Made by a program: the position numbers and the translations under genes
Shown here: positions 2,482 through 23,346 of the stretch, one piece after another
Position numbering within the stretch: position 1 is the stretch's first letter
Layout of the letters: each line of letters starts with the position of its first letter
NCBI GenBank assembly: GCA_963783575.1
Contig: CAWAOD010000010.1
Coordinates: 64,001 to 128,000 of the forward strand
Direction: 5' to 3'
Length of the DNA: 64,000 nt
Origin: an uncultured Spirochaetota bacterium
Lineage (GTDB): Bacteria > Spirochaetota > Brevinematia > Brevinematales > JAOACQ01
The notes under the pieces: generated by a model
Told to the model about the DNA's origin: nothing
What the model saw: only the letters and a program-made list of their open reading frames with translations
Database searches by the model: none

Positions 2482-4068
2482 ATGAACGGAAAAAAAATAG
2501 TATTAGTATCGGGTATGGTTTTTATGCTGGGCTTTTTGCTCTATTCATGTTCCACAACACCAGCCAGCAATAGCAGCAACAGTTCCAATAACAGCAAAAG
2601 TAGCAGCACGTCAAGCCAGGTAAGCTCAACTGGCAGCATGTCAAGCCAGGCAAGTTCAAGCAGCAGCATCGCTTCCCTGGCTCCCGTAATTTATGTAGCA
2701 GCGACCGGCAACGATACGAACAGCGGAACGAATGCTTCCGGTCCGCTTATGACCATCCAGGCCGGCGTCAGCGAGGCCGCGGCTCTGGGCTCAACCAACA
2801 TCTATGTCGCCGCCGGTGTTTACCTGCCGGGCAGTGGCTTGAATTCGACCGTAAACGGCTTGCTGATATCGAACAATAACATCAATCTCCTCGGCGGTTT
2901 TTCACCCGGTTTCACAAGCCGCACCGGAAAAAGCGAATTGAACGGCACCAACGGCATTTATCATATTATCATGATCTCGAACGCGCAGTATGTCAGGATC
3001 GACGGGTTTATCCTGGAAAACGGAAAATCGGTCGGCGTCGGGCCGAATGGCCTCGCCGGCGGTTTATATATGAATAATGCCGGTAACTGCATAATAAGCA
3101 ATACTGTGATCAGCAATAATTACGGAACAGGCGGCTGGGGAGGAGGGGTTACTCTCGACGGTTCATACCAAAACAGCATCATCGCCGTAATAGCTGGTAA
3201 CAATGTCAACGGTTACGGCGGCGGCATGTTCATTAACAATGGTTCGGGCAATTTTATCGATTGCGATTTCATATCGAATATCGGCCAGCAGGGAGCCGGC
3301 GGCCTCTTTCTGAATACTGGCGTCAATAACGTCATCTGCGGCACTTTCATCGGCAATAACGGAGGCACGGGTTCTTATACCGGCGGCGGAATCTATTGCT
3401 ACGGGAACAATAATACTGTCTCCAACGTGGTCATACAGGGAAACAGCGCAGGTTACGGAGGTGGAATATACTTCGATACGGGCGCCAATAACTGCATGGT
3501 TTACGGCGGGACGATCGCCAGCAATACCGCAGATAGCGGCAACGGCGGCGGGATATACTGCAACAGCCGGAGCCTGTTCGTTACCAATACGGCAATCTTA
3601 TACAACATTGCGCAGGCCCGCGGTGGCGGTTTATATTTCGACAGCCAGGCCTCAAACTGCACCGTCATCGGAGGGCAAATTATCGGCAATTCCGCTGTCA
3701 CCAGTTATGGAGGCGCGATTTATCATTATTGTGATACAAATATCCAGGTCAGGGATTCTGTTATCACGAATAACGCGGACGGAAACGCCGGAATAATCTG
3801 TCTTTATACGACAGGATATATTATGCTTTCGAACTGCATGATAGGCGGAACCAATAATTATAACGGTTTCGGGATATTCGAGACCGGCGGCGATTCAACC
3901 GGCCAGACCCTGCTGAACAATATCTTCCTTACCAATACTATTCCATCTTATCTTTATCATGACGTTAATAACGGTTCTATATCGACTGGAGCCGACTGGA
4001 CCAATATCAATGTTGCCGGTTTCACCGGCGCGGCAGCCGCCGGAGGAAATATAATGACAAATTTATAA
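2482..4068 (+). CDS. Lipoprotein with Ser-rich linker and parallel beta-helix repeats (DUF1565/Pmp-like)
   Basis: RBS AGGAGG before ATG 2482; lipobox LLYSC; IYVAATGNDTNSG...PLMTIQAG motif; GGGIY repeats. Confidence 0.8.
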   Translation: MNGKKIVLVSGMVFMLGFLLYSCSTTPASNSSNSSNNSKSSSTSSQVSSTGSMSSQASSSSSIASLAPVIYVAATGNDTNSGTNASGPLMTIQAGVSEAAALGSTNIYVAAGVYLPGSGLNSTVNGLLISNNNINLLGGFSPGFTSRTGKSELNGTNGIYHIIMISNAQYVRIDGFILENGKSVGVGPNGLAGGLYMNNAGNCIISNTVISNNYGTGGWGGGVTLDGSYQNSIIAVIAGNNVNGYGGGMFINNGSGNFIDCDFISNIGQQGAGGLFLNTGVNNVICGTFIGNNGGTGSYTGGGIYCYGNNNTVSNVVIQGNSAGYGGGIYFDTGANNCMVYGGTIASNTADSGNGGGIYCNSRSLFVTNTAILYNIAQARGGGLYFDSQASNCTVIGGQIIGNSAVTSYGGAIYHYCDTNIQVRDSVITNNADGNAGIICLYTTGYIMLSNCMIGGTNNYNGFGIFETGGDSTGQTLLNNIFLTNTIPSYLYHDVNNGSISTGADWTNINVAGFTGAAAAGGNIMTNL

Positions 4069-6599: not shown

Positions 6600-6722
6600 T
6601 GGAAATGTCAAGAGTTTTTCCCATATCTGCGCTCGGGTAATTTCCCACCCCTTCCACAAGAGTATTTCCCATATGCTTCACAAGAGTTTTCCCCATACCT
6701 TCCACGTGAGTATTTCCCATAG
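6600..6722. repeat. IS21 subterminal direct repeats (~24-bp period, CAAGAGT[A/T]TTTCCCATA-like, about 5 copies)
   Basis: Read directly; inverse copies TATGGGAAAT occur near 9089-9125. Confidence 0.8.
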
Positions 6723-6740
6723 TGAGGAGGCAAAGAATGG

Positions 6741-7490
6741 TTACTCAACCTCCTTATTCAAATTTTGTATTCTGTAAGATTCTCCGCTCAAGTTATAAAT
6801 ATTTGAATGATGTAAAAGCCTATCCAGAAGAGCGGTTGTCATAATCGGGTCTCCCATCATTTCAGCCCAATCCTGAAATCCCTTATTCGATGTTATCACA
6901 ATTGATGTCTTTTCATACAATTCACTTACAAGACTAAAGAATAGATTTGCCTCCTTCTTTTCGATAGGTGTGTAACCTATCTCATCAATGATTAATAAGT
7001 GTGACTTCATCATCCGGTTCAGCCTGAAAGCAGAGCTTCTCTGGATGTCCGCCGTTTTCAGAAACTTAATGAGAGTAGTCATCCTTTCAAAGCAGACAAT
7101 ATATCCCTTTTCAACTGCCCGGATTCCGATACTAATTGCCAGATGCGTTTTCCCCAGCCCCGGAGACCCAAAGAACAACAGGTTATGATGATTATCAATC
7201 CAGCAGAAATCCAATAGCTGTGAAACATCCATTTTAGATATTCCATTCACTTTTTCAAAATTAAAACCTTCCACATCTTTGCGGACCGGGAAGTGTGCTC
7301 CTGCCATATTCCGCTGAAAACGTTTTTCCACTCTATAATTCAATTCCAGAGAAAGCAGCCTCTGCAGAAAACTCAGATAAGACTCTTTTGCCTTTTCAGC
7401 CTCACCAATTTCCTCATCAATCCGTTTTATCATACCCTTCAACCCGAGAGTTGTAAGCGCAGTTATGATTTGTTCTCTTATCTTCAACAT
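6741..7490 (-). CDS. istB: IS21 helper ATPase IstB
   Basis: Walker A GSPGLGKTHLA, LLIIDEIGY, ALLDRLLHH; overlaps the istA stop. Confidence 0.95.
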   Translation of the reverse strand: MLKIREQIITALTTLGLKGMIKRIDEEIGEAEKAKESYLSFLQRLLSLELNYRVEKRFQRNMAGAHFPVRKDVEGFNFEKVNGISKMDVSQLLDFCWIDNHHNLLFFGSPGLGKTHLAISIGIRAVEKGYIVCFERMTTLIKFLKTADIQRSSAFRLNRMMKSHLLIIDEIGYTPIEKKEANLFFSLVSELYEKTSIVITSNKGFQDWAEMMGDPIMTTALLDRLLHHSNIYNLSGESYRIQNLNKEVE

Positions 7491-9037
7491 TGCCGGCCCC
7501 CGATGGAGTCACAGAAACTCTGGTATTTCCCGATGTCTGATTTAGCTACTTCAAGATAGTGTTCAGGATTCACTGAAGGCCTGACAATCTTTTCAACATT
7601 CAAGGGTATTTCTGCCTTTTCTGTTATAAAACAGTTCAGGTAATTATCCCACAAATCCTTCATGGAATAACTATCACTCTCCAGGCAGTTTGAGATCGCT
7701 TGTGTAAGCTTCCCGGTATCAATTATCTTGTCCCTGAAGTATTTTCTTCCGGAAAGACATTGGTCCCTTACATAACGATTGAACTTCCTGAAATTACATT
7801 CAAGAAAATCCTTCCAGCCGGGAATATCAAAGTACCCGCTTACTTCTTCTTTCAATAACTGCACACTCTTTCCCATTTCCCGGATCATTGCCCTGTTGGT
7901 TACAATCTGCCCCGGAATCACTGAAAGCCGGTATTCGGCGATTTGCTCTCCCGTTATCCTGTCAAAGACAAAAAGCCGACTGCCCGTCTTGTAGATGTCC
8001 ACCGAACCGTTCCTGTATTTTTCGGGAATATCATACTGGCTTGCATCAACTGCGATCCGGCATTTATCGCTTACACTGCGCTCTTCCCTTGCTCCTATCC
8101 TGTCTTTACGGAATATCGAATTCCTGACAGATTGGAGATATGGTCTTTCCGTTTCAATCTCTATCAGTGGTATTTTCATTGTAGCCTGGGATATTCTCCC
8201 GTTGGCTTTTCTTTCCAGCCATTTCATCAGGCTTTCTTCCGCTTCCATTAAACTGTTGAACTCCCGGACTGAGAAGAAACCGTGCTTGATGAATTTGACT
8301 ACGTTTTCAATCTTTCCCTTACTTTCCGGGTCAGCAGGTCGGCACACATACATTTTAAGACCCATTTCCCCGATGAAATACTGAAAGTCTTTCGTGTAGA
8401 TGATATCGCCTGAGTTCTCACTCGCAACCATCGTGCAGTCCTGATCGATGACAAGTTCATGCGGTATCCCGCCCATATATGCGAAACAGTCCAACAGATG
8501 ATTGATAAGGTCTTCTGTCCGGAATGGCCTCTCCTGGAGGGCCGCATACTTAAAACGACTGGCGGATAACACCGCGGCAAATATGTAATACCTTCTGCCA
8601 TATCTGTCGGTATATTGACCGAAATCAAGCTGGAGCTGCTTTCCATATGGCATGTCAGGCACTTTTGTGTAATACCGTCGCTTTTCATTCAAGGTAAGCT
8701 GCCCGCTTTCAATCAGGTAATGTACGAAATTCCTCATCGTATTTTCATTCGCCGGTAGTTTGCCTTTTACCTCCAATAAATAGTCATACAAAGCAGACAT
8801 ATTCAGCCGGATGTAATCATTCTTTGCATATACTTTCAATATGTCTGTTTTTATTCCTTCGAATTCTTTTTCACGGAAAGAGAATTCCATCAGGCTTTTC
8901 TGGTATTCGGAATCGTTCATAGCCCAATATTTTCGGACTGTCTTAATATCTATTGACAGTTCCCGGGATACACCATTTTTACTTTTCCCCAAAAGTTTCA
9001 GTTTTTTTATGTCCTGATACATAATATTTTTCACCAT
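7484..9037 (-). CDS. istA: IS21 transposase IstA
   Basis: N-terminal HTH, QLQLDFG, ELVIDQD, CRPADPESKGKIEN (rve DDE fold). Confidence 0.95.
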   Translation of the reverse strand: MVKNIMYQDIKKLKLLGKSKNGVSRELSIDIKTVRKYWAMNDSEYQKSLMEFSFREKEFEGIKTDILKVYAKNDYIRLNMSALYDYLLEVKGKLPANENTMRNFVHYLIESGQLTLNEKRRYYTKVPDMPYGKQLQLDFGQYTDRYGRRYYIFAAVLSASRFKYAALQERPFRTEDLINHLLDCFAYMGGIPHELVIDQDCTMVASENSGDIIYTKDFQYFIGEMGLKMYVCRPADPESKGKIENVVKFIKHGFFSVREFNSLMEAEESLMKWLERKANGRISQATMKIPLIEIETERPYLQSVRNSIFRKDRIGAREERSVSDKCRIAVDASQYDIPEKYRNGSVDIYKTGSRLFVFDRITGEQIAEYRLSVIPGQIVTNRAMIREMGKSVQLLKEEVSGYFDIPGWKDFLECNFRKFNRYVRDQCLSGRKYFRDKIIDTGKLTQAISNCLESDSYSMKDLWDNYLNCFITEKAEIPLNVEKIVRPSVNPEHYLEVAKSDIGKYQSFCDSIGGRQC

Positions 9038-9162
9038 TCCTGCCTTCCTTTAATGAATTTTCATTAAAGTTTAACTTCTATTTCCCCCTATGGGAAATCT
9101 GTTTGTGACAGGTATGGGAATTTCATTTATTGCTACCCTGGTAAATTAGTTTATCATTTCCA

Positions 9163-9417
9163 CGTAAACGGAGAAGAAGAAAAAGTTTTTCCTGCGCTCC
9201 TCGGGTTCGCCCAAGAACAGCAAGGAGAAAAGCTACGGCTGCGGTGCTCAGGCTTCGCCACATTTGCCTTTGGCATCTTTTTTGCTAATTTTGAAAATTA
9301 ATGAAAAGGGTTATGAAATGAAATGCTTTCAAATATTTAAAAGCCGGTTCTGGAATTGCAAAAAAGACGCCAATCGTTAACGCGAACGGCAAACGTCGCC
9401 AAGCCGCACCGTTAGCT
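9163..9417 (+). repeat. Truncated hybrid attC-like site (type A fragment 9163-9212 + type B 9240-9417); R' GTTAGCT at 9411
   Basis: Matches 10818-10867 and 13512-13689; lacks its R'' half. Confidence 0.7.
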
Positions 9418-9480
9418 GAAATGTGCGGGAAAATGAATATTTATAAATCGCAGCATCCTTGCTGCGAAAAAGGAGCGAAT

Positions 9481-10710
9481 ATGTATAATAACAAAGAAAA
9501 TGGTACTTTTCATACAGGTGATTTCGTCAGTTATAACGCATGCGTTGGATATAATGGAACAAACGATCTTGAAACATATGAAATTGGATATGATATTGCA
9601 GTAAAGCAATTAATTAATTCGACTAAGTCTAGCCATATTCCAGTTGATGCTATTATTTATCCTATTGCATTTTGTGCCAGACAAAAGCTTGAATTATTTT
9701 TAAAAGATATGATTAAACATTTAGGCTATATTAAATATCTTATAAATAACTGTGAGAAAGAAAACTTAAAGTTAAAACATGAATTAGATAAATTATTTCA
9801 AAAGTTTTCAGAATTGACTCTTATTGATTCAAGATGCCAAAAAGATATAACTATAATAGAAAAATTTGTGAAAGATTTTCATGATATTGATCCAACAGGA
9901 CAAACATTTAGATATCCAGAAAGTACAGAAAATACTCAACATTTAATAGATTTATCATGTATTAATATTATTGACTTTGAAAAAATATACATTCCTTTTA
10001 GTGCATATTGTGAAAAATTTAGAGTTATGATTGAATTTTTAATTGAAGAATACATACAAAAAACTTTTATTGATGGTGTATCAAGAAATGATATTTTTGA
10101 AATTTCAAAAATGCTTCCTCAAAGATATGATTGGGGTAAACCTGAATTTTTGGTTATAAAGAAACAGATTATGGAAAAATTCAAAATTAGCTCAAATAAA
10201 TTTTCAAAAGTTTTAAATATTATACAAAAACATACTTATTTTTCATTAAATATTGGAATTGAAAATAAAATAAAAACTATATCAAGTTCAGAATTCAACA
10301 ATTATTTGGGATTATACTCGGATTTTATTAAGAGAATTGAAAATGAGTCATTTAATAAAGTTCAAAATGAAATTTCAAACAAAATAATTAAATTATTACC
10401 TAAAAAAGTAATTTATTCTTTATGTTCTTTGAAAGAAATTGGAAATCAAAATTTATATCCTGAATATCATGAGCAATTATTCACATATTATTCAAAATTA
10501 AATTTATTTTCTATTGTATTTGATAGATTAGTTAGGACCGGTTATCTTCTGTTTTATCTTAAAAAAGGTTTATTAGCTTGTGGGCAAAAAACTTTATTAG
10601 AGGAATTGGAGCAATTTGTAAAGAGTAATCCACATTTATTAGACAGTTATGATATCAGTAGACGGCCTGCCATTACAGAAGTTGATTTCAATGAATTATT
10701 TAAAAAATAA
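9481..10710 (+). CDS. Cassette 1: hypothetical protein with HEPN-like N-terminal region
   Basis: AAGGAG before ATG 9481; ARQKLELFLK...KHEL...DPTGQTFRYP resembles the HEPN pattern. Confidence 0.55.
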   Translation: MYNNKENGTFHTGDFVSYNACVGYNGTNDLETYEIGYDIAVKQLINSTKSSHIPVDAIIYPIAFCARQKLELFLKDMIKHLGYIKYLINNCEKENLKLKHELDKLFQKFSELTLIDSRCQKDITIIEKFVKDFHDIDPTGQTFRYPESTENTQHLIDLSCINIIDFEKIYIPFSAYCEKFRVMIEFLIEEYIQKTFIDGVSRNDIFEISKMLPQRYDWGKPEFLVIKKQIMEKFKISSNKFSKVLNIIQKHTYFSLNIGIENKIKTISSSEFNNYLGLYSDFIKRIENESFNKVQNEISNKIIKLLPKKVIYSLCSLKEIGNQNLYPEYHEQLFTYYSKLNLFSIVFDRLVRTGYLLFYLKKGLLACGQKTLLEELEQFVKSNPHLLDSYDISRRPAITEVDFNELFKK

Positions 10711-10769
10711 CTGTGTTATAACAACGCCATCCTTGGCTTTGCTAGTTGTGCCGACTTCCCGCACCCTTC

Positions 10770-11020
10770 AGCTAACAGCGGCTATATCGCTCCGGTGCTC
10801 GAAAAAACTTTTCAGGGCGTAACGGAGGAGAAGAGAAAAGTTTTTCCTGCGCTCCTCGGGTTCGCCCGTTTTTGATTTTGTAAAAAGAGAAAGGAGTTCA
10901 ACTTGACTATGATGATTATTAAAATAGAAGTCATTATTTACGGGCTCACCACATTTTCGGGCCTAAGAGCGCGGGGCTAGCTCTAAGGCCCGAAAACGTC
11001 GTATAGCCGCACCGTTCTAC
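10770..11020 (+). repeat. attC-like site, type A (251 bp)
   Basis: AGCTAAC-AGCGGCTATATCG ... CGTATAGCCGCACC-GTTCTAC, with three internal hairpins. Confidence 0.85.
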
Positions 11021-11069
11021 GCCATTACGGGCACAAGCTTGTTTTAAAAAAAAAGTGAGGTTAAATAAT

Positions 11070-11648
11070 ATGGAAAAAAAGAAGAATATCTATCAATTGA
11101 AAATCAATTTAATGGATACAAAACCACCAATTTGGAGAAGAATTTTAGTTGAATCAAATGTAAAATTACCTGATTTACATAAAATTATTCAATCAACAAT
11201 GGGCTGGACGAACTCACATTTGCATGATTTTATCATTAATGGAATGACTTACACATTGCCTGATGAAGACAATGAATTGGAATATATAGATTACAGAAAA
11301 ATAAAATTAAATAAACTAATTGAAAATGAAGGTGCAAAATTCAACTATATTTATGATTTTGGTGATGATTGGAACCACAAAATTGAACTTGAAGAAATAT
11401 TGCCATATGATTCTGCTAGAAAATATCCTATATGTATAGCTGGAAAAAGAAGATGTCCACCAGAAGATTGTGGTGGGACAGGTGGTTTTGAAGACTTACT
11501 TAAAATTATTAAAGATCCAAAAAATGAAGAATATGAAGATATGATGAATTGGTTACCTGATAATTTTGATCCTGAACATTTTAATATAAATGAAATAAAT
11601 GAATTATTACAAAAAAAGGATTATGGTTGCATAACAATTTATGATTAA
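11070..11648 (+). CDS. Cassette 2: plasmid pRiA4b ORF-3 family protein
   Basis: YQLKINL...PPIWRRILV...LHKIIQ..MGW.NSHLH, YIYDFGDDW, CPPEDCGG. Confidence 0.9.
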   Translation: MEKKKNIYQLKINLMDTKPPIWRRILVESNVKLPDLHKIIQSTMGWTNSHLHDFIINGMTYTLPDEDNELEYIDYRKIKLNKLIENEGAKFNYIYDFGDDWNHKIELEEILPYDSARKYPICIAGKRRCPPEDCGGTGGFEDLLKIIKDPKNEEYEDMMNWLPDNFDPEHFNINEINELLQKKDYGCITIYD

Positions 11649-11674
11649 ACATTGTGCCCGTAACGGCGCAGAAC

Positions 11675-13468
11675 GGCCATGTAGAAAAAGTTAATTTCAG
11701 GTAATAATCCTCCATTCCCAAACAGTTTGTTTTTTTTGATCTGTCTGGAATCACTTTTTTATATAAAACCGGGCTGAATTTACCGGCAAAACTGCTTTTA
11801 TTCCATCACTATGCCATTATATACCTCCATAGACCTGAATTTTCCCGATATTGTGCACAGTATTATATAATACCCATTGAATATTCACTTTTACCTTTCC
11901 CCTCAGCGTAAATCGATCCATACCTTTACATGCCCTTATATTCCCGAATACAGGCTCAACTATAGCCATTCTTTTCGCATAAAGCTTTCTGCCTTCAGGT
12001 GTATCTATGAACTTTCTCATTTCGTCCGAGTAATGTCTGTTATCCGCATTCAATGGCCTTTGCAACATCGTGTTGCTGTCGAACTAACGTTCGACGGCCT
12101 TTTTGGCTATATAGTAGCTCTTATGGAACCTCCGTGTTCCCAAGGTTGTTTGATTTTATTTTAATTCTTCAGGAAGTCTTTCCGGAATGGACAATTACGG
12201 CAGGACAATAACCGGCAGATATACTTCGCGTATGTAATATGATTCACCGTATGGTTATTTCTGAACCGGAGTTCCTCTCCTTTCTTGCATATATAGACAT
12301 TCCTTATTGGGTCATATTGAAAATCATCGATTGTATACTGCCCTTTCTTCGCAGGCTTATGTCTGTCAGCGGTTTCAAACCTGCAATCGCGCTTCCTGAA
12401 ATTCGTATCCGGGATGACCGGTTTCATACCGTTTTGCGAAATATATTTCAGGTTCTTTTCGCTGAAATAATTGGTGTCCGCGGTGATTATTTTATCCTTT
12501 AAATCTTTTCCCAATTCTACTTTTGCTTTACGGATCATCCCTTTCAGGAATTCCCCCTCAGACCCGCTCCCAAAAGCTTCGGGATATACCACAACCTGAT
12601 ATTTCGAATCCACGACCGATAAGCCATTGTATCCCTGGATTACACCGTGCGATGATTTTATTTTCGCGCTCTGGTTATCAGTGACATTGGACTGCTTTTC
12701 ACCATGCCTTGATTTATCTTTCGGTTTTTCACTTTCCAGAAACTTTTCTATCTTTTCAGCTTTCTTTAAAATCTTCTCGATCCGTGCCAGATCTTTTTCC
12801 TTATCCTTCTCAGGAAAATCGCCGTCCTGATCACGCTTTTCATGTTCATCAAGCATTTCCTTAACCAGGTTTTCCAGCTTCTCTTTTTTCTTCTTCAAAT
12901 CCTTAAATGTTCCGCTCCATTCCTTTGATGCATTTGACGATAGTTTGCACCCGTCCAGCGCGAACATATCCCCGCCTATGAGATTCAGTTCGTCACAAAC
13001 CATCAATGTATTCAGGAATACGGTATTTATCTCATTTTTCATCGAAGAAACAAAATCGGCGATTGAAGTAAAGTGCGGTATTGAATTGGCGGAAAGGGCT
13101 TTGGCTATAATATTCGTTTTACACAAATACTCGATTTCACGTGATGTAAAAATACCGCGGGAATAGCTGTAGAGTATTATTTTGAGCATAACCCGCGGAT
13201 TATAAGCCGGGGCACCGGTAGCATCGTTCTTATACTTATTCTCAAAGATTTTAAGATCAATTCTGTTGTCAACAAGAAAACTGAGTGTATATTCGAATGT
13301 TCCCGGTATAATCTGCTCATCGAATGAGACAGGTATGAGTTCCATTTGATCGTAATTAACTTTCTTATATCTTGCCATAATTGCTTTTACCTCTTGATTT
13401 TATTTCCAATATATTTTAAAGTATATACGATATTCTGTACATGAATGACGGACTTTTTCTACAGGCTC
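11675..13468 (-). mobile_element. IS1182-family element, copy 1 (1794 bp), inserted in the attC R'' box
   Basis: 17-bp imperfect IRs GGCCATGTAGAAAAAGT / ACTTTTTCTACAGGCTC; AAC on both flanks. Confidence 0.9.
11817..13378 (-). pseudogene. IS1182-family transposase split into 405-aa and 83-aa ORFs
   Basis: GAPAYNPRVMLKIILYSY (DUF772-like), ALDGCK, ADTNY; YAKRMAIVEPVFG lies in the second ORF; TAA plus frame change at 12161-12068. Confidence 0.85.
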
Positions 13469-13689
13469 AACAAGGCATAGCTGTTGCGCTCCGTCCTCAC
13501 TAGCGTTCCGGGCGGTGCTCAGCCTTCGGCACATTTGCCTTTGTCATCTTTTTTGCAGAATTTGAAATTTAATGAAAAGGGTTATAAAAATGAAATACTT
13601 TATTATATTTAAAGTCTGGTTCTGGAATTGCAAAAAAGACACCAATCGCTAACGCGACCGGCAAACGTCAGCTATGCCTGCCGTTAAAC
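13465..13689 (+). repeat. attC-like site, type B (225 bp); first bases of R'' (GCTCAAC) supplied by the IS end
   Basis: GCTCAAC-AAGGCATAGCTG ... CAGCTATGCCTGCC-GTTAAAC. Confidence 0.85.
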
Positions 13690-13727
13690 GAAAGGCATGG
13701 CAGACTTTAATTATAAAGAGGTATTTT

Positions 13728-14957
13728 ATGAAAAATTTTATGATTATTTATGCACTACTTATGATATCAATTTTTTCTAATTTCATTTATTCAAATGATA
13801 TCCTGAATCAAACTAACAAATTTCCTTCAAATATTTTAGATTTTTATCTTAACCTCCCTAATGAACCTTTATTAGGTGATGTAGGTACAGATATTCAAAA
13901 TAGAATTGATTATTTAACTAATAATAATAACCATGATTCTTATTCACCAATAATAATTGATATAAAAAATGGATTTATTTCAATGAGATCTGAAATCAAT
14001 CATAATTATTTTATATTGAATGAATATGCTTTATTTACAACTAAAAATTTAAAATACATAGCTTGTGTTTTTAGGATGAACGATGCTGAATTTCCAGGCT
14101 ATATTATTTCCAATACTTTTATTATTTATCAATTCACAAATAATAATTTCATAGATGTAACAAAAGCTGTATTTCCAAGAATAGAATATTCTATGTTTTT
14201 TGATGATTTCGACATGAAAGGTAAGTATCTTTCAAATATACCAAATGATAAAATTTTCTATAAATTGCCTAGGTTTGGAACAAAGATTGAAGCAAATATT
14301 GAAATAAGTGAATTAACAACCCAAAGAAATTATGATTGGTCAGAGCTATATCTTGCATTTAAAACTAACAAAATAAATATTGATTTTAATTCAAAAAGTG
14401 GAGAATTTTATATAGTAAAATCAAAAGAGCAAAAGTATTTCAAGAATAATGATGAAATAGCATTATATTCTTGTAAAAATTATGTAAATATCATCAAACC
14501 AATAGAAGAAATAATTTCCTCAACATCAAATTTTAACTTTCATAATAAATTACCTGTTAATAATGTATATGAAGCATATTTTAGTAAAAGTGTATATGTA
14601 AGAATTGAAATAGAACCTTTTGATTCAAAAAATAAAGTATATACAAATGATCATGATTATAAAGATTTTGTAAATGGTGAGCGTATTTTCGGTTGTAACT
14701 TAGATAAACCTTTTCATGAATTTAAATCAGCAGACTTGTTTTATGACAATAAAAAATTTACAATTCCTACTAAGAATTTATATAATCCTTTTTCAATTAA
14801 TGGAAAAAATTGTATTAAATTTCTTAAAATTAAAGATGATTTTTATATTCTTGGTGATTTCTCAGATGGTGCTGGTGCTTATTCAATTTTATGGAAATTA
14901 TATGAGAATAAAATTTCTATAATAAAAATATTCAATTTATATGGTGATTTATTTTAG
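13728..14957 (+). CDS. Cassette 3: secreted hypothetical protein
   Basis: GAGGT RBS before ATG 13728; signal peptide MKNFMIIYALLMISIFSNFIYS. Confidence 0.7.
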   Translation: MKNFMIIYALLMISIFSNFIYSNDILNQTNKFPSNILDFYLNLPNEPLLGDVGTDIQNRIDYLTNNNNHDSYSPIIIDIKNGFISMRSEINHNYFILNEYALFTTKNLKYIACVFRMNDAEFPGYIISNTFIIYQFTNNNFIDVTKAVFPRIEYSMFFDDFDMKGKYLSNIPNDKIFYKLPRFGTKIEANIEISELTTQRNYDWSELYLAFKTNKINIDFNSKSGEFYIVKSKEQKYFKNNDEIALYSCKNYVNIIKPIEEIISSTSNFNFHNKLPVNNVYEAYFSKSVYVRIEIEPFDSKNKVYTNDHDYKDFVNGERIFGCNLDKPFHEFKSADLFYDNKKFTIPTKNLYNPFSINGKNCIKFLKIKDDFYILGDFSDGAGAYSILWKLYENKISIIKIFNLYGDLF

Positions 14958-14988
14958 CCACTTAATGTTTGATACTGCCAGGCCCTTC

Positions 14989-15236
14989 GTTTAACCGTGG
15001 CTATATCGCTCCGGTGCTCGAAAAAACTTTTCAGGGCGTATGGAAATGTCAAGAGTTTTTCCTGCGCTCCTCGGGTTCGCCCGTTTTAGATTTTGGTAAA
15101 AAGAGAAAGGAGTTCAAATTGACTATGATGATTAATAAAATAAAGGTCATTATTTACGGGCTCACCAAACCCGTAAACCTAAGCGCGCGGGGCTGGCGCT
15201 AAGGTTTGCGGGCTTCGTATAGCCTCACCGTTATAT
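14989..15236 (+). repeat. attC-like site, type A variant (248 bp) containing an IS21 end footprint
   Basis: GTTTAAC-CGTGGCTATATCG ... CGTATAGCCTCACC-GTTATAT; 15041-15062 identical to 6600-6621. Confidence 0.85.
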
Positions 15237-15261
15237 GCAATGCTGGCTGCACGGATTATTC

Positions 15262-15290
15262 TTGACAATATGGCTGATTGTATGTATTAT
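15262..15290 (+). promoter_or_regulatory. sigma70 promoter of brnTA (probably leaderless)
   Basis: TTGACA-17bp-TATTAT; ATG 7 nt downstream; no SD. Confidence 0.7.
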
Positions 15291-15297
15291 TATATGT

Positions 15298-15573
15298 ATG
15301 ATATTTGAATGGGATGAAAATAAAAACAAAACTAACATTGAAAAACATAATATTTCTTTTGATTATGCCCAGCTTGCATTTCTTGATGATAAAAGAATTA
15401 TTGCGGAAGACTTGAAACATAGTGATACTGATGAAAAACGTTACTTTTGCTTTGGAAAAATAGATGATACAATCATTACTGTTAGATTTACTTACAGAAA
15501 AAATAGAATAAGAATATTCGGAGCTGGTGCATGGCGAGAAGGAAGGAGGATATATGAACAAGAAAACAATTAA
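15298..15573 (+). CDS. brnT: Cassette 4: BrnT-family toxin
   Basis: MIFEWDENKNKTNIEKHNISF...RIRIFGAG. Confidence 0.9.
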   Translation: MIFEWDENKNKTNIEKHNISFDYAQLAFLDDKRIIAEDLKHSDTDEKRYFCFGKIDDTIITVRFTYRKNRIRIFGAGAWREGRRIYEQENN

Positions 15574-15811
15574 ATATACTAAAGCACCAAAAGAAATATC
15601 TGATGCCATTAACAATTCAATAATAATAAAGGATTTCTTACCATCTCCTAAAGAACTGATACTTAAAGAAAAAACAAAAAAAATTACTATTAATTTAAGT
15701 GAAAAAAGTTTAATTTTTTTCAAAAATTCTGCTAAAAAAAATCATGTTTCATATCAACAAATGATTAAAGAAATTCTTGATAAATATTCAGATTATTATA
15801 AATACAATTAA
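15554..15811 (+). CDS. BrnA/CopG-like antitoxin
   Basis: AGGAGG RBS; overlaps the toxin; DFLPSP.EL...KKITINLS...YQQMI (RHH). Confidence 0.8.
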   Translation: MNKKTIKYTKAPKEISDAINNSIIIKDFLPSPKELILKEKTKKITINLSEKSLIFFKNSAKKNHVSYQQMIKEILDKYSDYYKYN

Positions 15812-15829
15812 AGAGTGCAGCCAAACTGC

Positions 15830-16080
15830 GTATATCAGCGGCTATATCGCTCCGGTGCTCGAAAAAACTTTTCAGGGCATAACGAAGAAGAAGAAAAAGT
15901 TTTTCCTGCGCTCCTCGGGTTCGCCCGTTTTAGATTTTGGTAAAAAGAGAAAGGAGTTCAAATTGACTATGATGATTAATAAAATAAAGGTCATTATTTA
16001 CGGGCTCACCACATTTTCGGGCCTAAGAGCGCGGGGCTAGCTCTAAGGTCCGAAAACGTCGTATAGCCACACCGTTGTAC
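15830..16080 (+). repeat. attC-like site, type A (251 bp); R'' mutated (ATC instead of AAC)
   Basis: GTATATC-AGCGGCTATATCG ... CGTATAGCCACACC-GTTGTAC; near-identical to 10770-11020. Confidence 0.85.
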
Positions 16081-16105
16081 GCAAGTCTGGCCGCAGCTTT
16101 TATTT

Positions 16106-16144
16106 ATACTAACTATTGACATTAGTAACTATATATGTTAGTAT
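16106..16144 (+). promoter_or_regulatory. sigma70 promoter of higBA with flanking inverted repeat (putative HigA operator)
   Basis: TTGACA(16116)-17bp-TAGTAT; ATACTAAC...GTTAGTAT inverted repeat; ATG 5 nt downstream. Confidence 0.7.
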
Positions 16145-16149
16145 TATAT

Positions 16150-16431
16150 ATGATAAAGTCTTTTAAAGATGACGAAACGAGTTTAATTTGGTTTGGTATT
16201 AAATCAAGAAAATTACCACCAAATATTCAAGATGTTGCTCGACGAAAATTAAGAATGCTTAATAATGCTCATGCTTTATCTGATTTATTAATACCACCAT
16301 CAAATAAATTAGAATCTTTAAAAGGAAATAGAAAAGGTCAACATAGCATTAGAATAAATGATAAATATAGAATTTGTTTCATTTGGAAATCTAATGATGC
16401 CTATAGTGTTGAAATTATTGATTATCATTAA
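16150..16431 (+). CDS. higB: Cassette 5: HigB (RelE/ParE superfamily) toxin
   Basis: MIKSFKD...ARRKLRML...PPSNKLESLKGNRKGQHSIRINDKYRICF...VEIIDYH. Confidence 0.92.
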   Translation: MIKSFKDDETSLIWFGIKSRKLPPNIQDVARRKLRMLNNAHALSDLLIPPSNKLESLKGNRKGQHSIRINDKYRICFIWKSNDAYSVEIIDYH

Positions 16432-16449
16432 ATATTAAAGAGGTAAAAT

Positions 16450-16761
16450 ATGACTGAAAGATTAAAAAACATACATCCTGGTGAAATCTTAAAAGAAGAA
16501 TTTTTATTGCCTTTAAATATTACAGCTTATAGACTATCAAAAGAAACAGGCATACCGCAAACGGCAATATCTGAAATAGTAAAAGAAAAAAGAAGAATCA
16601 CTGCACCTGTAGCCTTAAAATTCTCAAAATTTTTTGGTACTACTCCTCAATTTTGGTTAGGTCTTCAAGATGATTATGATCTAGAAGAGGAAGAAATCCA
16701 TATAAAAAAAGAATTGGATAATATTCATTCAATAAAAGACTTACATTTAGTTAATGCCTAA
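16450..16761 (+). CDS. higA: HigA antitoxin (HTH-XRE)
   Basis: IHPGEILKEEFLLPL...RRIT...FGTTPQFWLGLQ..YDL. Confidence 0.92.
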   Translation: MTERLKNIHPGEILKEEFLLPLNITAYRLSKETGIPQTAISEIVKEKRRITAPVALKFSKFFGTTPQFWLGLQDDYDLEEEEIHIKKELDNIHSIKDLHLVNA

Positions 16762-16793
16762 TTCTAGAACTTGCTGCACCGCCATCGCCTAAC

Positions 16794-18588
16794 GGCCATG
16801 TAGAAAAAGTTAATTTCAGGTAATAATCCTCCCTTTCCAAACAGTATGTTTTTTTTGATCTGTCTGGAATTACTTTATTTTTATAAAACCGGGCTGAATT
16901 TACCGGCAAAACTGTTTTTATTCCATCACTATGCCATTATATCCCTCCATAGACCTGAATTTTCCCGATATTATGCACAGTATTATATAATACCCATTGA
17001 ATATTCACTTTTCCCTTTCCCCTCAGCGTAAATCGATCCATACCTTTACATGCCCTTATATTCCCGAATACAGGCTCAACTATAGCCATTCTTTTCGCAT
17101 AAAGCTTTCTGCCTTCAGGCGTATCTATGAACTTTCTCATTTCGTCCGAGTAATGTCTGTTATCCGCATTCAACGGCCTTTGCAACATCGTGTTGCTGTC
17201 GAACTAACGTTCGACGGCCTTTTTGGCTATATAGTAGCTCTTATGGAACCTCCGTGTTCCCAAGGTTGTTTGATTTTATTTTAATTCTTCAGGAAGTCTT
17301 TCTGGAATGGACAATTACGGCAGGCCGATAACCGGCAGATATACTTCGCGTATGTAATATGATTCACCGTATGGTTATTTCTGAACCGGAGTTCCTCTCC
17401 TTTCTTGCATATATAGACATTCCTTATTGGGTCATATTGAAAATCATCGATTGTATACTGCCCTTTCTTCGCAGGCTTATGTCTGTCAGCGGTTTCAAAC
17501 CTGCAATCGCGCTTCCTGAAATTCGTATCCGGGATGACCGGTTTCATACCGTTTTGCGAAATATATTTCAGGTTCTTTTCGCTGAAATAATTGGTGTCCG
17601 CAGTGATTATTTTATCCTTTAAATCTTTTCCCAATTCTACTTTTGCTTTACGGATCATCCCTTTCAGGAATTCCCCCTCAGACCCGCTCCCAAAAGCTTC
17701 GGGATATACCACAACCTGATATTTCGAATCCACGACCGATAAGCCATTGTATCCCTGGATTACACCGTGCGATGATTTTATTTTCGCGCTCTGGTTATCA
17801 GTGACATTGGACTGCTTTTCACCATGCCTTGATTTATCTTTCGGTTTTTCACTTTCCAGAAACTTTTCTATCTTTTCAGCTTTCTTTAAAATCTTCTCGA
17901 TCCGTGCCAGATCTTTTTCCTTATCCTTCTCAGGAAAACCGCCGTCCTGATCACGCTTTTCATGTTCATCAAGCATTTCCTTAACCAGGTTTTCCAGCTT
18001 CTCTTTTTTCTTCTTCAAATCCTTAAATGTTCCGCTCCATTCCTTTGATGCATTTGACGATAGTTTGCACCCGTCCAGCGCGAACATATCCCCGCCTATG
18101 AGATTCAGTTCGTCACAAACCATCAATATATTCAGGAATACGGTATTTATCTCATTTTTCATCGAAGAAACAAAATCGGCGATTGAAGTAAATTGCGGTA
18201 TTGAATTGGCGGAAATGGCTTTGGCTATAATATTCGTTTTACACAAATATTCGATTTCACGTGATGTAAAAATGCCGCGGGAATAGCTGTAGAGTATTAT
18301 CTTCAGCATAACCCGCGGATTATAAGCCGGGGCACCGGTAGCATCGTTCTTATACTTATTCTCAAAGATTTTAAGATCAATTCTGCTGTCAACAAGAAAA
18401 CTGAGTGTATATTCAAATGTTCCCGGTATAATCTGCTCATCGAATGAGACAGGTATGAGTTCCATTTGATCGTAATTAACTTTCTTATATCTTGCCATAT
18501 TTTCTTCTCCGACTTGATTTTATTTACAATATATTTTAAAGTATATACGATATTCTGTACATGAATGACGGACTTTTTCTACAGGCTC
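16794..18588 (-). mobile_element. IS1182-family element, copy 2 (1795 bp), inserted in the attC R'' box
   Basis: Same IRs as copy 1; GCCTAAC|IS|AAC junctions. Confidence 0.9.
16937..18498 (-). pseudogene. IS1182 transposase, split exactly as in copy 1
   Basis: ORFs 17281..18498 and 16937..17188; scattered SNPs relative to copy 1 but the same stop and frameshift. Confidence 0.85.
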
Positions 18589-18775
18589 AACAACAGCTAT
18601 ACCGCTGCGGTGCTCGACTCCCCTGGCACTACGTCTGTGCTCCTCGGGTGCAGCTAGTTTTTTGTATAAAAAGTAAAATGGGGTTAAAATTATTTATGAT
18701 TATAATTAAAGAGAATACTTTGGTAAAAGAGGCTGCACTAAGCCTCACGGGCTTCGTATAGCCGCACCGTTGTAC
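18585..18775 (+). repeat. attC-like site, type C (191 bp)
   Basis: GCTCAAC-AACAGCTATAC ... GTATAGCCGCACC-GTTGTAC; internal GTGCAGC/GCTGCAC stem. Confidence 0.8.
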
Positions 18776-18801
18776 GAAAGAATAAAGCAAGGGGTAAATA
18801 T

Positions 18802-19707
18802 ATGGAAGTTATTGATGAAATAAAAACTTTAATGTTTAATAAAAATTGGAAAATTAAAATTTTATCTATTTAATATTTAAATAATTTAAAAGATAATTTG
18901 GAAAAAAATTTCAAGGTACTGGAAAATAAAGAGTTTGTTGATTATATCAGTAAATGTTTTAGTTTTAATTCCAAAGAAATAGTAAATTATGCAAAGTCAC
19001 TAATTATTATTGCGATACCGAGCCCAATAATATCTATCACTGTAATTTGGAATAATATTGAGAAAAAAATAATTATTCCACCAGCATATATCAATATGCG
19101 TTCGGCAATTGAAGAAGCGGAGATATTATTATCGAATATATTAAATAAAAATAATCATAGTATAAAAAGAGTTGCAATACCTGAAAAATTATTAGCAGTT
19201 CATAGTGGTTTGGGAAAATATGGTAAAAATAATATATGCTATATTGAAGGGATGGGTAGTTTTTTCAGATTAGTCTCATTTATAAGTAATATTCAAGAGA
19301 TTAATTCTGATTGGGATGATATTAATATTATGGAATCATGCAGCAAATGTAATATCTGCTTAAAAAGATGCCCAACTGGTGCGATTAGAGAAGATAGATA
19401 CTTAATCGATGGCTATAAATGCCTGACATTTTTTAATGAAAGACCAGGGGAATTTCCTAAATGGATAGATAATTCAGCTCATCACTGTCTGGTTGGTTGT
19501 TTATTCTGCCAGGATAAGTGTCCACAAAATAAAAAAGTTATAAATAATATAAATGAATGTGAATTCTTCAGTGAAAGAGAATTAATAGCAATTATGAATA
19601 TAAAAGAATTTGAGAAATTGGATATAAATATAAGGTTCAAATTAATAAAATTGAATATGGATGTATACTATAATGTCTTATCGAGGAATTTAAAAGTATT
19701 ATTATGA
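18802..19707 (+). pseudogene. Cassette 6: epoxyqueuosine reductase (QueG)-like 4Fe-4S protein with an early in-frame stop
   Basis: ATG 18802, TAA at 18871 in frame; GLGKYGKN, CSKCNICLKRCPTGAI, GCLFCQDKCP. Confidence 0.7.
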
Positions 19708-19730
19708 AAATGCCCCGCCCATCGTACAAC

Positions 19731-19842
19731 GGCCTTGTAGAAAAAGTTAATTTCAGGTAATAATCCTCCCTTTCCAAACAGTATGTTTTTTATCGATCTG
19801 TCCGGAATCACTTTTTTATATAAAATCGGGCTTAATTTACCG
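19731..19842 (-). mobile_element. IS1182 remnant (transposase-distal end only), after R'' GTACAAC
   Basis: GGCCTTGTAGAAAAAGT... matches the first ~110 bp of copies 1 and 2. Confidence 0.85.
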
Positions 19843-20047
19843 CATTTTGCCGATAAAAAGGGTGGAATACTGCCTTGTCAGCTTATAAAAGGAGAATTTC
19901 GGAGTGTTTTTATAATTCTTCAATCAAATTTTAGTTTGACATACCTATTGGGACGGGATATAATGAATTTGGATGTAAAAGATGCCCCAAATGCATCAAA
20001 ATGAAAAGCCATTTGGGAAATATCAGATAAAATGAGGAGGAAGAACC

Positions 20048-20362
20048 ATGAAATGGTACCATTATTTAGCTTGTTTCTTTGCAGGTATGTTTCTTGTGAA
20101 TACCGTACCGCATTTTATTCATGGGGTATCAGGCGAGTTATTTCCTACACCATTCGCAAATCCACCAGGGAAGGGGCTTTCATCACCAACAATAAATATT
20201 CTTTGGGCACTTGTAAATCTTGTGGTTGGATATATTCTTTTTAATATTGGCAAGGTTAACAAGCCGGATAAGTGGTGGAGCTGGCCAAGGGTCATATTTT
20301 TTGTTGGGATTATTGTAATGAGTATTATGTCAAGTTTTGCTTTCTCACAAATTAATAGGTAG
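20048..20362 (+). CDS. Small membrane protein
   Basis: GAGGAGG RBS; 3 TM helices; N.VPHF..GVSG..FPTPFA.PPGKGLSSP..N motif. Confidence 0.7.
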   Translation: MKWYHYLACFFAGMFLVNTVPHFIHGVSGELFPTPFANPPGKGLSSPTINILWALVNLVVGYILFNIGKVNKPDKWWSWPRVIFFVGIIVMSIMSSFAFSQINR

Positions 20363-20426
20363 GCTTTTTAACCTATTATATTGTTTCAAAAATTAAAAAG
20401 TTCATATATTAGGTGACAGTAAAGTT

Positions 20427-21188
20427 ATGTTATTTAAAAATAGTATGAGATTTATATTATTAACGCTATTTTTTATCAATGTATTAATTTCGTGCAGTAG
20501 CAAATTTATTAAAATGGATAAGACAGGCATTAGTATCAAAGAGACGGATTTAATTGACAAGCAAGAAGTAGAAAGAATAACAAAAAAGATAAATGATATC
20601 GAAGAAACATTTAATACTATATTTAAAACAAGATTACAATTTACAATTGAATTAGTTAAACAGAATGAAACAGATGCATGCATAAAAATAATAGATGGTA
20701 AGGAAGGAATACTTCTTAATGATAAATATATTAAAAATTATTTAGACACTGAGTTAGCAATAACTCTTTCGCATGAATATTTTCATATTTATCAAAATAA
20801 TAAAATACAACCTGAAAAATGGAATTATACAATTGTTCGAAGATTATATGAAGAAGGTTCGGCTTGTTTTGCTCCATCATTAATTATCAGTGGGATGGAA
20901 GATTGGAAATATATATCACCTTTTAGAAATGATAATAAAGAGTTCATAGCATTTGAAAAATATGAGGGGGAAGCAAAAGAATATATATTAACAAATTTGT
21001 ATAGTAAAGATATTGAGGTGGATAGACATTTATTTTCAGGAAATATGAATTTTTCTAAACCTTGGCCTCCAAGAATTGGATATTATTTTGGTTATAAATT
21101 AATAAAAAAAATGTATCAACAAAATGGAATGAAAGTATTTCAATTAAGTGAGTATGAAATTATTAAAGAGATTAATAATGAGTTATAG
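20427..21188 (+). CDS. Lipoprotein, putative Zn-dependent protease (DUF2268-like)
   Basis: Lipobox LISC; HEYFH; EEGSA; RIGYYFGY. Confidence 0.65.
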   Translation: MLFKNSMRFILLTLFFINVLISCSSKFIKMDKTGISIKETDLIDKQEVERITKKINDIEETFNTIFKTRLQFTIELVKQNETDACIKIIDGKEGILLNDKYIKNYLDTELAITLSHEYFHIYQNNKIQPEKWNYTIVRRLYEEGSACFAPSLIISGMEDWKYISPFRNDNKEFIAFEKYEGEAKEYILTNLYSKDIEVDRHLFSGNMNFSKPWPPRIGYYFGYKLIKKMYQQNGMKVFQLSEYEIIKEINNEL

Positions 21189-21199
21189 AAGGCGCCTTC

Positions 21200-21374
21200 C
21201 GCGCCTCGGCATTGTGCCATATTTGCCTTTGTAACAGTTATTGCAGGTTTTGTTATTTTATAAAAAATGATATAAAATGGAATACTTTAATCTAAATGAA
21301 AGCTGGTTCTGGAATTGCAAAAAAGACAATAATCGCTGGCACGAACGGTACATTGCCAAGCTATACCGTCGCAC
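21200..21374 (+). repeat. Degenerate type B attC-like site (R'' lost, R' GTC)
   Basis: ATTTGCCTTTG...CTGGTTCTGGAATTGCAAAAAAGAC...GCCAAGCTATACCGTC is similar to 9260-9417 and 13530-13689. Confidence 0.7.
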
Positions 21375-21410
21375 GGCATGCTATACAAATAATATAAAAG
21401 GAGAAAAATA

Positions 21411-22022
21411 ATGTTGAAAGAATATATCGCCGTTTCAATATTTAAACCATCATCTATTTATGTTAATTTATTTCATGATAAAAGAAAGGTACTAATATCC
21501 TTCTCAATGCTAATGGTATTAGGGATTCTCTATACTATAACTGTAATATTTGGTTATAAAAATGGTTTTGGTGCGATAGTTAAACCTATCTTATCAATTC
21601 CAAGTAATAAATATTATTTTTATGAAATATTTTTCGGAATTCCTGTTTTTTTTCTAATATCAATAGTTTTTGCCGGAACAAGTAGATTGTTATCAACATT
21701 ATTAGGCGGCGAAGGTTCTTTTGAGAATAATTTTGTTATTTATTGTACTTCAGCATTTATTCCAACTCTTTTAACTCTATGGTTACCAGAAACATTATTG
21801 ATTGTCTTTTTTCCGGATTTACGGGCAACTCCGCTTGACGGTTTTAAAATATTACCTGCTTATATTGATTTTATTCGACAAATATTAGGTGTGTTATGGC
21901 CGATGTTTATTTCAGTAATTGGAATCAGAGTATCGGAAAATGTAACTTACCTAAAGAGCAGTATCATTACTTTTATTTCTTTTATTTTATGTGGAATTAT
22001 TATGATAATATTTATTCGATAA
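21411..22022 (+). CDS. Cassette 7: Yip1-domain membrane protein
   Basis: AAGGAG RBS; FKPS motif; LLGGEGSF; about 5 TM helices. Confidence 0.65.
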   Translation: MLKEYIAVSIFKPSSIYVNLFHDKRKVLISFSMLMVLGILYTITVIFGYKNGFGAIVKPILSIPSNKYYFYEIFFGIPVFFLISIVFAGTSRLLSTLLGGEGSFENNFVIYCTSAFIPTLLTLWLPETLLIVFFPDLRATPLDGFKILPAYIDFIRQILGVLWPMFISVIGIRVSENVTYLKSSIITFISFILCGIIMIIFIR

Positions 22023-22050
22023 TATTATATATTGCACGCCGCCAACAACC

Positions 22051-22278
22051 ATCCCTCCATAGACCTGATTTTACCAATGGATTCGGCAGGCTCACCAAAA
22101 GTATTATACATAGTATTATAGATCATCCACTGAATATAACTTTTCCCAACTCCAATTGTTTGTAATTGACTTTCTTAAACCTTGCCATAATTGCTTTTAC
22201 CTCTTGATTTTATTTACAATATATTTTAAAGTATACACGATATTCCGTACATGCATGACGGACTTTTTCTACAGTCTC
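22051..22278 (-). mobile_element. Internally deleted IS1182 remnant, followed by AAC and the first 16 bp of another attC
   Basis: Transposase 3' fragment joined to the 5' fragment; ACTTTTTCTACAGTCTC|AAC AGCGGCTATAACGCTC. Confidence 0.8.
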
Positions 22279-22335
22279 AACAGCGGCTATAACGCTCATA
22301 AATATCTTGTATTCTTGCTGTTATGCGGTATTTAA

Positions 22336-23346
<1,011 letters not shown>

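Follow-up and report, generated by a model that had tools for sequence, protein, structure and literature searches.

Why should one insertion sequence (IS) be found again and again at the same three nucleotides of a gene cassette array, always at the foot of a hairpin and always pointing the same way? The question is raised by a 64,000-nt stretch of an uncultured Spirochaetota bacterium (assembly GCA_963783575.1, contig CAWAOD010000010.1, positions 64,001 to 128,000; the whole stretch is called the window here), in which an array of plus-strand cassette open reading frames (ORFs), divided by G+C-rich repeats of several types, extends from about 6.6 to 22.3 kb. A preliminary description, made from the letters alone, had proposed that an IS of the IS1182 family targets the R'' box of attC sites in this array and rebuilds it. 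On the basis of sequence comparisons within and between genomes, we consider it probable that this IS1182-family element transposes specifically into the foot of attC-like hairpins between cassettes.

The element itself was identified from its copies in the 4.9-Mb source assembly (G000), which was searched by blastn before all ends were read out. Eight full or near-full copies were found, two on contig C10, three on C5 and one each on C9, C16 and C4. Only the 1717-bp C16 copy keeps an open frame, of 494 aa; six of the eight have an insert of ~100 nt inside the transposase gene, and the C4 copy is decayed. The intact transposase scores 278.6 bits (cut-off 270) against the NCBIfam IS1182 model NF033551 over residues 8-488, in agreement with the family first assigned. 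Pfam recognizes DUF772 (E 5.9e-13) and, in an 83-aa fragment of the gene, DDE_Tnp_1_6 (E 9.1e-16), together with a weak match to DDE_Tnp_1 (19.8 bits, cut-off 23). The terminal inverted repeats have a 12-nt core, TGTAGAAAAAGT, that is common to both ends and present in all copies and relatives. The element is an IS1182-family DDE insertion sequence of ~1.72 kb when intact. The notion that it is itself an integron cassette was rejected, given its inverted-repeat ends, its DDE transposase and the direct triplet repeats that flank it; the foot that it adjoins is, moreover, apparently not cleaved, to judge from the cassette boundaries discussed below.

The case for target specificity begins with the ends. 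When all copies and remnants in G000 were scored with their flanks, a check proposed in the preliminary description, all 17 left ends proved to be preceded by AAC and all 8 right ends to be followed by it, the left-end context being CGTACAAC in 11 of the 17. According to blastn with the sites of the window, attC-like repeats occupy only 12 array regions, apart from scattered single fragments (some 40 blocks altogether), and every copy or remnant of the IS lies in or beside such an array region. A loose scan of the whole genome for AAC-stem-GTT hairpins gave 4755 matches, mostly by chance, and was discarded. Chance is excluded as the cause of the AAC junctions. The six junctions named at first all abut AAC by their coordinates, and there is a seventh, at which AAC 22047-22049 is followed directly by a remnant that starts at 22050 and is closed on its other side by AAC 22279-22281. 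In the window the transposase is encoded on the minus strand and every cassette ORF on the plus strand, and the same antisense orientation holds throughout the genome. The targets do differ in type, as had been claimed: the right flanks in the window belong to three different repeat types (the two occupied sites and the stub in Table 1). Left and right flanks also differ among the G000 copies, with the exception of one left flank common to C5 and C9. Neither of the refuting conditions named at first, copies mostly outside such sites or segmental duplication with shared flanks, was borne out. Finally, a miniature inverted-repeat transposable element (MITE) of 109 bp with the same ends as the IS (C16:118937-118829) lies inside a type-A site, with AAC on each side.

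What kind of site is being entered? Both an AAC and a GTT foot are present in 23 of 24 sites examined, and an inner stem of 8-11 bp stands beside the feet in 18 of 23 scored sites, with nine stem sequences that covary on both arms. In classical attC, extrahelical bases are found on the R''-L'' arm. Here, the stems of the 18 sites are perfect and the longer spacer is the one on the L'-R' arm: the GTT-side spacer exceeds that on the AAC side in all 18, mostly by 2 nt (1 versus 3, or 2 versus 4). With lengths of 150-245 bp and this 2-nt asymmetry on the arm opposite to the classical extra bases, the sites are atypical as attC. The IS is inserted outside the hairpin; in folds of occupied sites the inner stem is kept, in at least one the AAC/GTT foot is kept as well, and the IS terminus pairs only partly with its partner box. 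The idea that the IS rebuilds R'' stands in a reduced form. The IS end GCTC plus AAC literally fits RYYYAAC, but the native box in this lineage is mostly GTACAAC, the pairing is partial, and the apparent restoration of the box is a by-product of the 3-bp duplication.

The same habit was found in other genomes. Matches came from 5 of 35 genomes of the same order that were searched (the 5 include G000), and a scan of genome contigs gave one close relative, in an uncultured Spirochaetota metagenome-assembled genome (G025). This copy, with 88% amino acid identity, is arranged as AAC, IS, AAC and then a 172-bp hairpin site. Another Spirochaetota genome, G022, has two AAC-flanked copies with 67% identity at hairpin sites, and six more on three contigs that have AAC on both sides and lie in six different contexts, even though they are 99.9-100% identical to each other (55-56% to the query); a clear right-hand hairpin body is present in four of these six. 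In addition, a MITE of about 100 bp sits in a G022 hairpin site.

More distant relatives were collected by a metagenome scan with a five-protein alignment, which retained 80 loci at 40-87% identity, and an end pattern located both IS ends in 44 of them. At 41 of these 44 loci, distant relatives with 40-49% identity, the arrangement in transposase orientation is GTT, IS, GTT. An exact-complement hairpin test did not discriminate beside the distant relatives, being positive for 6 of 30 flanks that face the hairpin and for 9 of 34 control flanks, and folding energies were used in its place. The flank next to the transposase start has a median folding free energy (dG) of -14.8, with z < -2 in 13 of 30 cases; the corresponding values for the opposite flank are -6.3 and 3 of 35. 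The folds represent classical attC-like sites, for example GCCTAAC ... GTT. Since the flanking ORFs are on the transposase strand (23/23 upstream, 22/24 downstream), the IS of the distant relatives separates a hairpin from the cassette that follows it, and so occupies the classical crossover foot. The spirochaete copies, by contrast, have a transposase that runs antisense to the cassettes, and they separate a gene from its own hairpin. In both groups, the end at which the transposase starts faces the hairpin body, and the arm adjacent to the IS is the one without extra bases (13 classical folds, by eye; 18 of 18 sites here, by count). This shared geometry would be the best argument that the transposase reads the shape of the hairpin.

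The AAC repeat is read as a 3-bp target duplication because uninterrupted sites have a single AAC while occupied sites have a direct repeat of it. Both full copies of the window have AAC on each side, as first described; of the uninterrupted sites, 12 show just one AAC in the corresponding place, and in a further 3 the triplet is mutated. The comparison is thus one between paralogous sites, and several points weigh against the proposed mode of insertion. No empty orthologue of an occupied site was found: 11 other genomes of the family contain no relative of the cassette that flanks copy 1 on the left, and in the single cassette pair shared by G022 and G000 the homology ends inside the gene. 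No transposition event has been seen. A public run that contains 23% of the words of window positions 10900-14200 gave short contigs in which neither a junction spanning the IS nor a version of the region lacking it was present, a result that carries no weight either way. An element that itself bears one AAC, and that inserts without duplication, would look identical. The first 8 nt after AAC are alike in most targets of the spirochaete clade, which makes plain sequence recognition possible. Lastly, the right flank of two of the six near-identical G022 copies is not a hairpin body; either the specificity is not absolute or these sites have been rearranged.

How, then, might the insertions arise? 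The element would enter where the site adjoins the gene, at the AAC triplet (the R'' box of integrons), and a 3-bp staggered cut would duplicate this triplet. The end at which the transposase starts (the right inverted repeat, IRR) always lies against the hairpin body, so that the transposase is antisense to the cassettes. An intact hairpin borders the element at this end and the cassette gene borders it at the opposite end; the element thus lies inside the cassette that it entered. The foot would be chosen by reading the asymmetry of the hairpin together with the triplet. The copies that bear the ~100-nt insert and the 109-bp MITE were presumably moved in trans by the single intact C16 copy.

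Are these arrays integrons at all? The repeats could instead be the sites of a distinct integron-like system with a Xer-type recombinase, and the IS a parasite of that system; this is the alternative that keeps the most weight, although we would not bet on it. Its support comes from the length, perfect stems and reversed asymmetry of the sites and from the recombinases. No match above the cut-off for the integron integrase model TIGR02249 was found in six genomes (G000, G022, G025, G020, G021 and G024), the recombinases that adjoin arrays reaching 212-214 bits of the 265 required. One of the two recombinases of G022 does pass the XerA/'integron integrase' model NF040815 (237.7 versus 220). These two proteins, of 351-353 aa, are encoded at the heads of arrays on G022 contigs C2 and C6 (loci L049:1162-2223 and L050:1207-2262). 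The best match of the C6 protein in PDB is VchIntIA (2a3v), to which only residues 14-181 and 248-320 align; 24 residues stand in place of 66 between the aligned blocks of VchIntIA, so that about 42 residues are missing, and the IntI-specific insert is on these grounds taken to be lacking. Against a separate system, the sites have AAC and GTT feet, the arrays consist of small, co-oriented, promoterless-looking ORFs that include toxin-antitoxin cassettes, a recombinase gene heads the array (G022 C2 and C6, and C5 of G000), and the cassette junctions are at GTT. The G000 gene, C5:457129-458180, is a pseudogene with a frameshift and a stop, and the C5 array begins about 550 nt past it. The label attC, as used in the preliminary description, thus suits the feet and the stems, but not the length of the sites or a recombinase without the IntI-specific insert. 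As a further observation, the tyrosine recombinases linked to arrays carry an N-terminal extension of ~80 aa.

A second alternative is that the target is chosen by primary sequence, namely AAC plus about eight conserved bases of the left stem arm, rather than by hairpin structure. Most targets in G000, G025 and G022 indeed begin with A and a similar 7-nt stretch after the triplet, and the sites are homogeneous within one genome. However, the stem sequences, of nine kinds, differ among the targeted types, and the relatives with 40-49% identity have only the triplet and the structure of one flank in common, the sequence beside the triplet not being conserved. A precedent is also provided by a member of the same family, IS1272/TnSha1, which according to PMC4923244 enters hairpins without a sequence consensus. 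We regard sequence recognition as unlikely, yet as something to be reckoned with. The claim that structure rather than sequence is recognized accordingly gains from the distant relatives, but is unproven within G000.

Could the foot that is entered be the crossover foot of the recombinase, and not the uncleaved R''? The array polarity would then be opposite to that of classical integrons and the R'' label would be wrong. The placement of the distant relatives, at the GTT foot between a hairpin and the next co-oriented gene, is just what this proposal expects, and the asymmetry of the hairpin, with the IS next to the arm without extra bases in both groups, would predict the other foot. There is also one cassette end (C13:214700-214712 of G000) in which AAC is followed immediately by GTT with no hairpin body. 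Considering where the cassettes begin, however, we think this proposal improbable. In 3 of 3 cases (C5 versus C9, C13 versus G025 and C13 versus G022), the homology of cassettes that stand behind different hairpin bodies starts at GTT. GTT is also the start of the cassette that comes first behind the intact G022 recombinase; this cassette has no hairpin body in front of it, and its start is complementary to its own end. These junctions, together with the first G022 cassette, support the label R'' for the IS site.

The copies might, finally, have multiplied by duplication or shuffling of IS-bearing cassettes, through the recombinase or homologous recombination, and not by targeted transposition. 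A cassette plus IS unit is in fact shared by C5:472317-476469 and C9:383975-388066, with 97.4% identity over 4156 nt, and in both G000 and G025 a HigBA cassette has an IS left end behind it, at the same site. In the C5/C9 unit, the hairpin bodies that follow the IS are different from their very first base, the right end of the C9 copy matches another C5 copy, and the IS is a mosaic, all of which would fit homologous recombination between IS copies and not a recombinase-mediated transfer of an IS-bearing cassette. With different flanks on both sides of all other copies, six contexts for the six near-identical G022 copies, MITEs that have the same ends and flanks, and the same triplet at both ends of nearly all distant relatives in unrelated metagenomes, shuffling is a very improbable source of the pattern.

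The preferred reading, transposition into the hairpin foot, can be extended to the lineage as a whole, in a form that we put forward tentatively and consider rather doubtful. Perhaps one IS1182 lineage homes to cassette hairpins by means of the foot triplet and the hairpin asymmetry, and the spirochaete arrays are integron-like, with a Xer-type recombinase that lacks the IntI insert and with the asymmetry on the opposite arm. That difference in the sites would explain why the opposite foot and orientation are found in the two groups.

To our knowledge, mobile elements that home to attC are of only two unrelated kinds, the IS1111-attC group and the group IIC-attC introns. The former (ISPa21, ISPst6 and ISKpn4, of IS1111/IS110) is described in PMC3001079 and PMC11187229 as homing to attC, where its members lie close to the 5' end of the site and run antisense to the cassettes; in these respects it resembles the present element. 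Those elements have a DEDD transposase with a seeker RNA and make no inverted-repeat-bounded cut-and-paste insertions, whereas the element here has terminal inverted repeats, a 3-bp duplication and a transposase of the IS1182 DDE type, not the DEDD (IS110/IS1111) type. Group IIC-attC introns such as S.ma.I2 are inserted between the cassette gene and attC, in the bottom strand and antisense to the cassettes (PMC3001079). The likeness is one of placement and orientation; the introns are retroelements with a ribozyme and reverse transcriptase, and an Rfam scan of window positions 9000-23000 gave only a sub-threshold match to Ysr283, at chance level.

Within the IS1182 family, IS1272/TnSha1 of staphylococci insert into hairpin-forming sequences, as described in PMC4923244, and a review cited there states that some members target palindromes. 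IS1272 differs in that its targets are numerous terminator hairpins unrelated to each other, which it enters either way round, deleting part of the target and producing no duplication. The present element enters at a single triplet of the hairpin foot, in a single orientation, and the hairpin stays whole. IS elements are reported in 12% of clusters of attC sites lacking integron integrases (CALINs) and in 23% of complete integrons (Cury et al. 2016, PMC4889954). The present arrays resemble such CALINs and sedentary chromosomal integrons in their co-oriented cassettes and AAC...GTT hairpin sites, and the array in the window has no recombinase within reach; they differ in site length, in the arm that bears the spacer asymmetry and in the recombinase without the IntI insert. 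A literature search, in which subscription journals and ISfinder entries were outside the scope, found no description of an IS1182-family element that targets attC. With attC homing known for the two kinds above and hairpin targeting for IS1272, homing to the attC foot by an IS1182 element may be new.

A third kind of attC-homing element, of the DDE cut-and-paste type, would mark cassette hairpins as a refuge for genome parasites in general. If the present account is true, the element would also be a natural probe for how proteins read folded or palindromic DNA. Such insertions, and recombination among the copies, can detach arrays from their recombinase and relocate whole groups of cassettes. 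The mirror placement, the long sites and the recombinase without the IntI insert further hint at cassette systems that standard integron finders may miss.

Table 1. Copies and remnants of the IS in the window, with the hairpin sites they adjoin and one uninterrupted site
Feature	Position	Strand	Remarks
IS copy 1	11675..13468	-	1794 bp; AAC flanks 11672-11674 and 13469-13471
Copy 1 transposase, N-terminal ORF	12161..13378	-	405 aa; DUF772 and weak DDE_Tnp_1; truncated by inserted repeat
Copy 1 transposase, C-terminal fragment ORF	11817..12068	-	83 aa; DDE_Tnp_1_6
~100-nt three-hairpin repeat in copy 1 transposase gene	12063..12167	n/a	Substitutes for 28 nt of the intact contig C16 copy
IS copy 2	16794..18588	-	1795 bp; AAC flanks 16791-16793 and 18589-18591
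Copy 2 ORFs	17281-18498 and 16937-17188	-	
Same ~100-nt insert in copy 2	about 17183-17287		
Left-end remnant	19731..19842	n/a	112 nt; AAC 19728-19730 directly before; closes 4Fe-4S-protein cassette
Internally deleted remnant	22050..22278	n/a	Divergent IS positions ~147-221 fused to 1667-1794
attC-like site entered by copy 1	13469..13685	+	AAC, 1-nt spacer, 11-bp stem, second 11-bp arm, 3-nt spacer, GTT
attC-like site entered by copy 2	18589..18771	+	Sequence type differs from that of the copy 1 site
Type-A site stub	22279..22297	+	19 nt; end of array
Uninterrupted type-A attC-like site	10774..11016	+	243 bp, single AAC; comparison site

The two full copies in the window are 98.2% identical by blastn, and in both the transposase gene is broken into parts of 405 and 83 aa by the ~100-nt insert. 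At the left-end remnant (Table 1), the hairpin body and the remainder of the IS are absent. The cassettes of the array encode a PRiA4_ORF3 protein, BrnT/BrnA-like and HigB/HTH toxin-antitoxin pairs, a 4Fe-4S protein, a DUF2268 protein and a Yip1 protein, and no tyrosine recombinase gene was found among the scanned window ORFs of at least 150 aa. The inserted repeat consists of three short hairpins, each tipped AAC-loop-GTT, with compensatory stem changes among copies. It has no match in Rfam and is found at at least 12 further places in the genome, for example C13:259457-259550, C14:394136-394240 and C9:320203-320291. In a different set of five repeats, the outermost ~60 nt of the IS left end are joined to a second sequence that the repeats have in common, and these repeats occupy the attC position at five different cassette junctions (C12:23373 and C13:204445, 208334, 209556 and 213752); their spread to five cassettes is unexplained.

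A second IS1182-like element, with 26% identity to the first, is present in about 30 scattered copies in G000 (for example C16:113365-114699), one of which lies by its coordinates inside an array region. One copy of this family adjoins a hairpin site that is truncated. In G022, two ends of the same family form a MITE-like pair within a hairpin site (L025, reverse strand, ~3140-3250).

The type-A sites of the window (10774-11016, 14990-15233 and 15836-16077) are ~243 bp long, with two G+C-rich hairpins around an A+T-rich middle. The middle contains a TTGACT box directed at the next gene, a candidate promoter only. An IS21-family element on the minus strand (about 6606-9166; IstB 6741-7490, IstA 7484-9037) interrupts one type-A sequence, and the element occupies the same internal type-A position in three arrays (the others at C9:389485 and C9:127538), its end resembling the sequence that it interrupts. 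Beside IS21 copies there is also a 1145-bp element with terminal inverted repeats, at C5:465539-466683 and C9:123712-124856, the two copies being 99.9% identical. Near the arrays, noise in the GC skew was too strong for the orientation of the IS to be related to the direction of replication. The first 50 kb of contig C10, outside the window, have a GC skew of -0.26, far from that of the rest of the contig.

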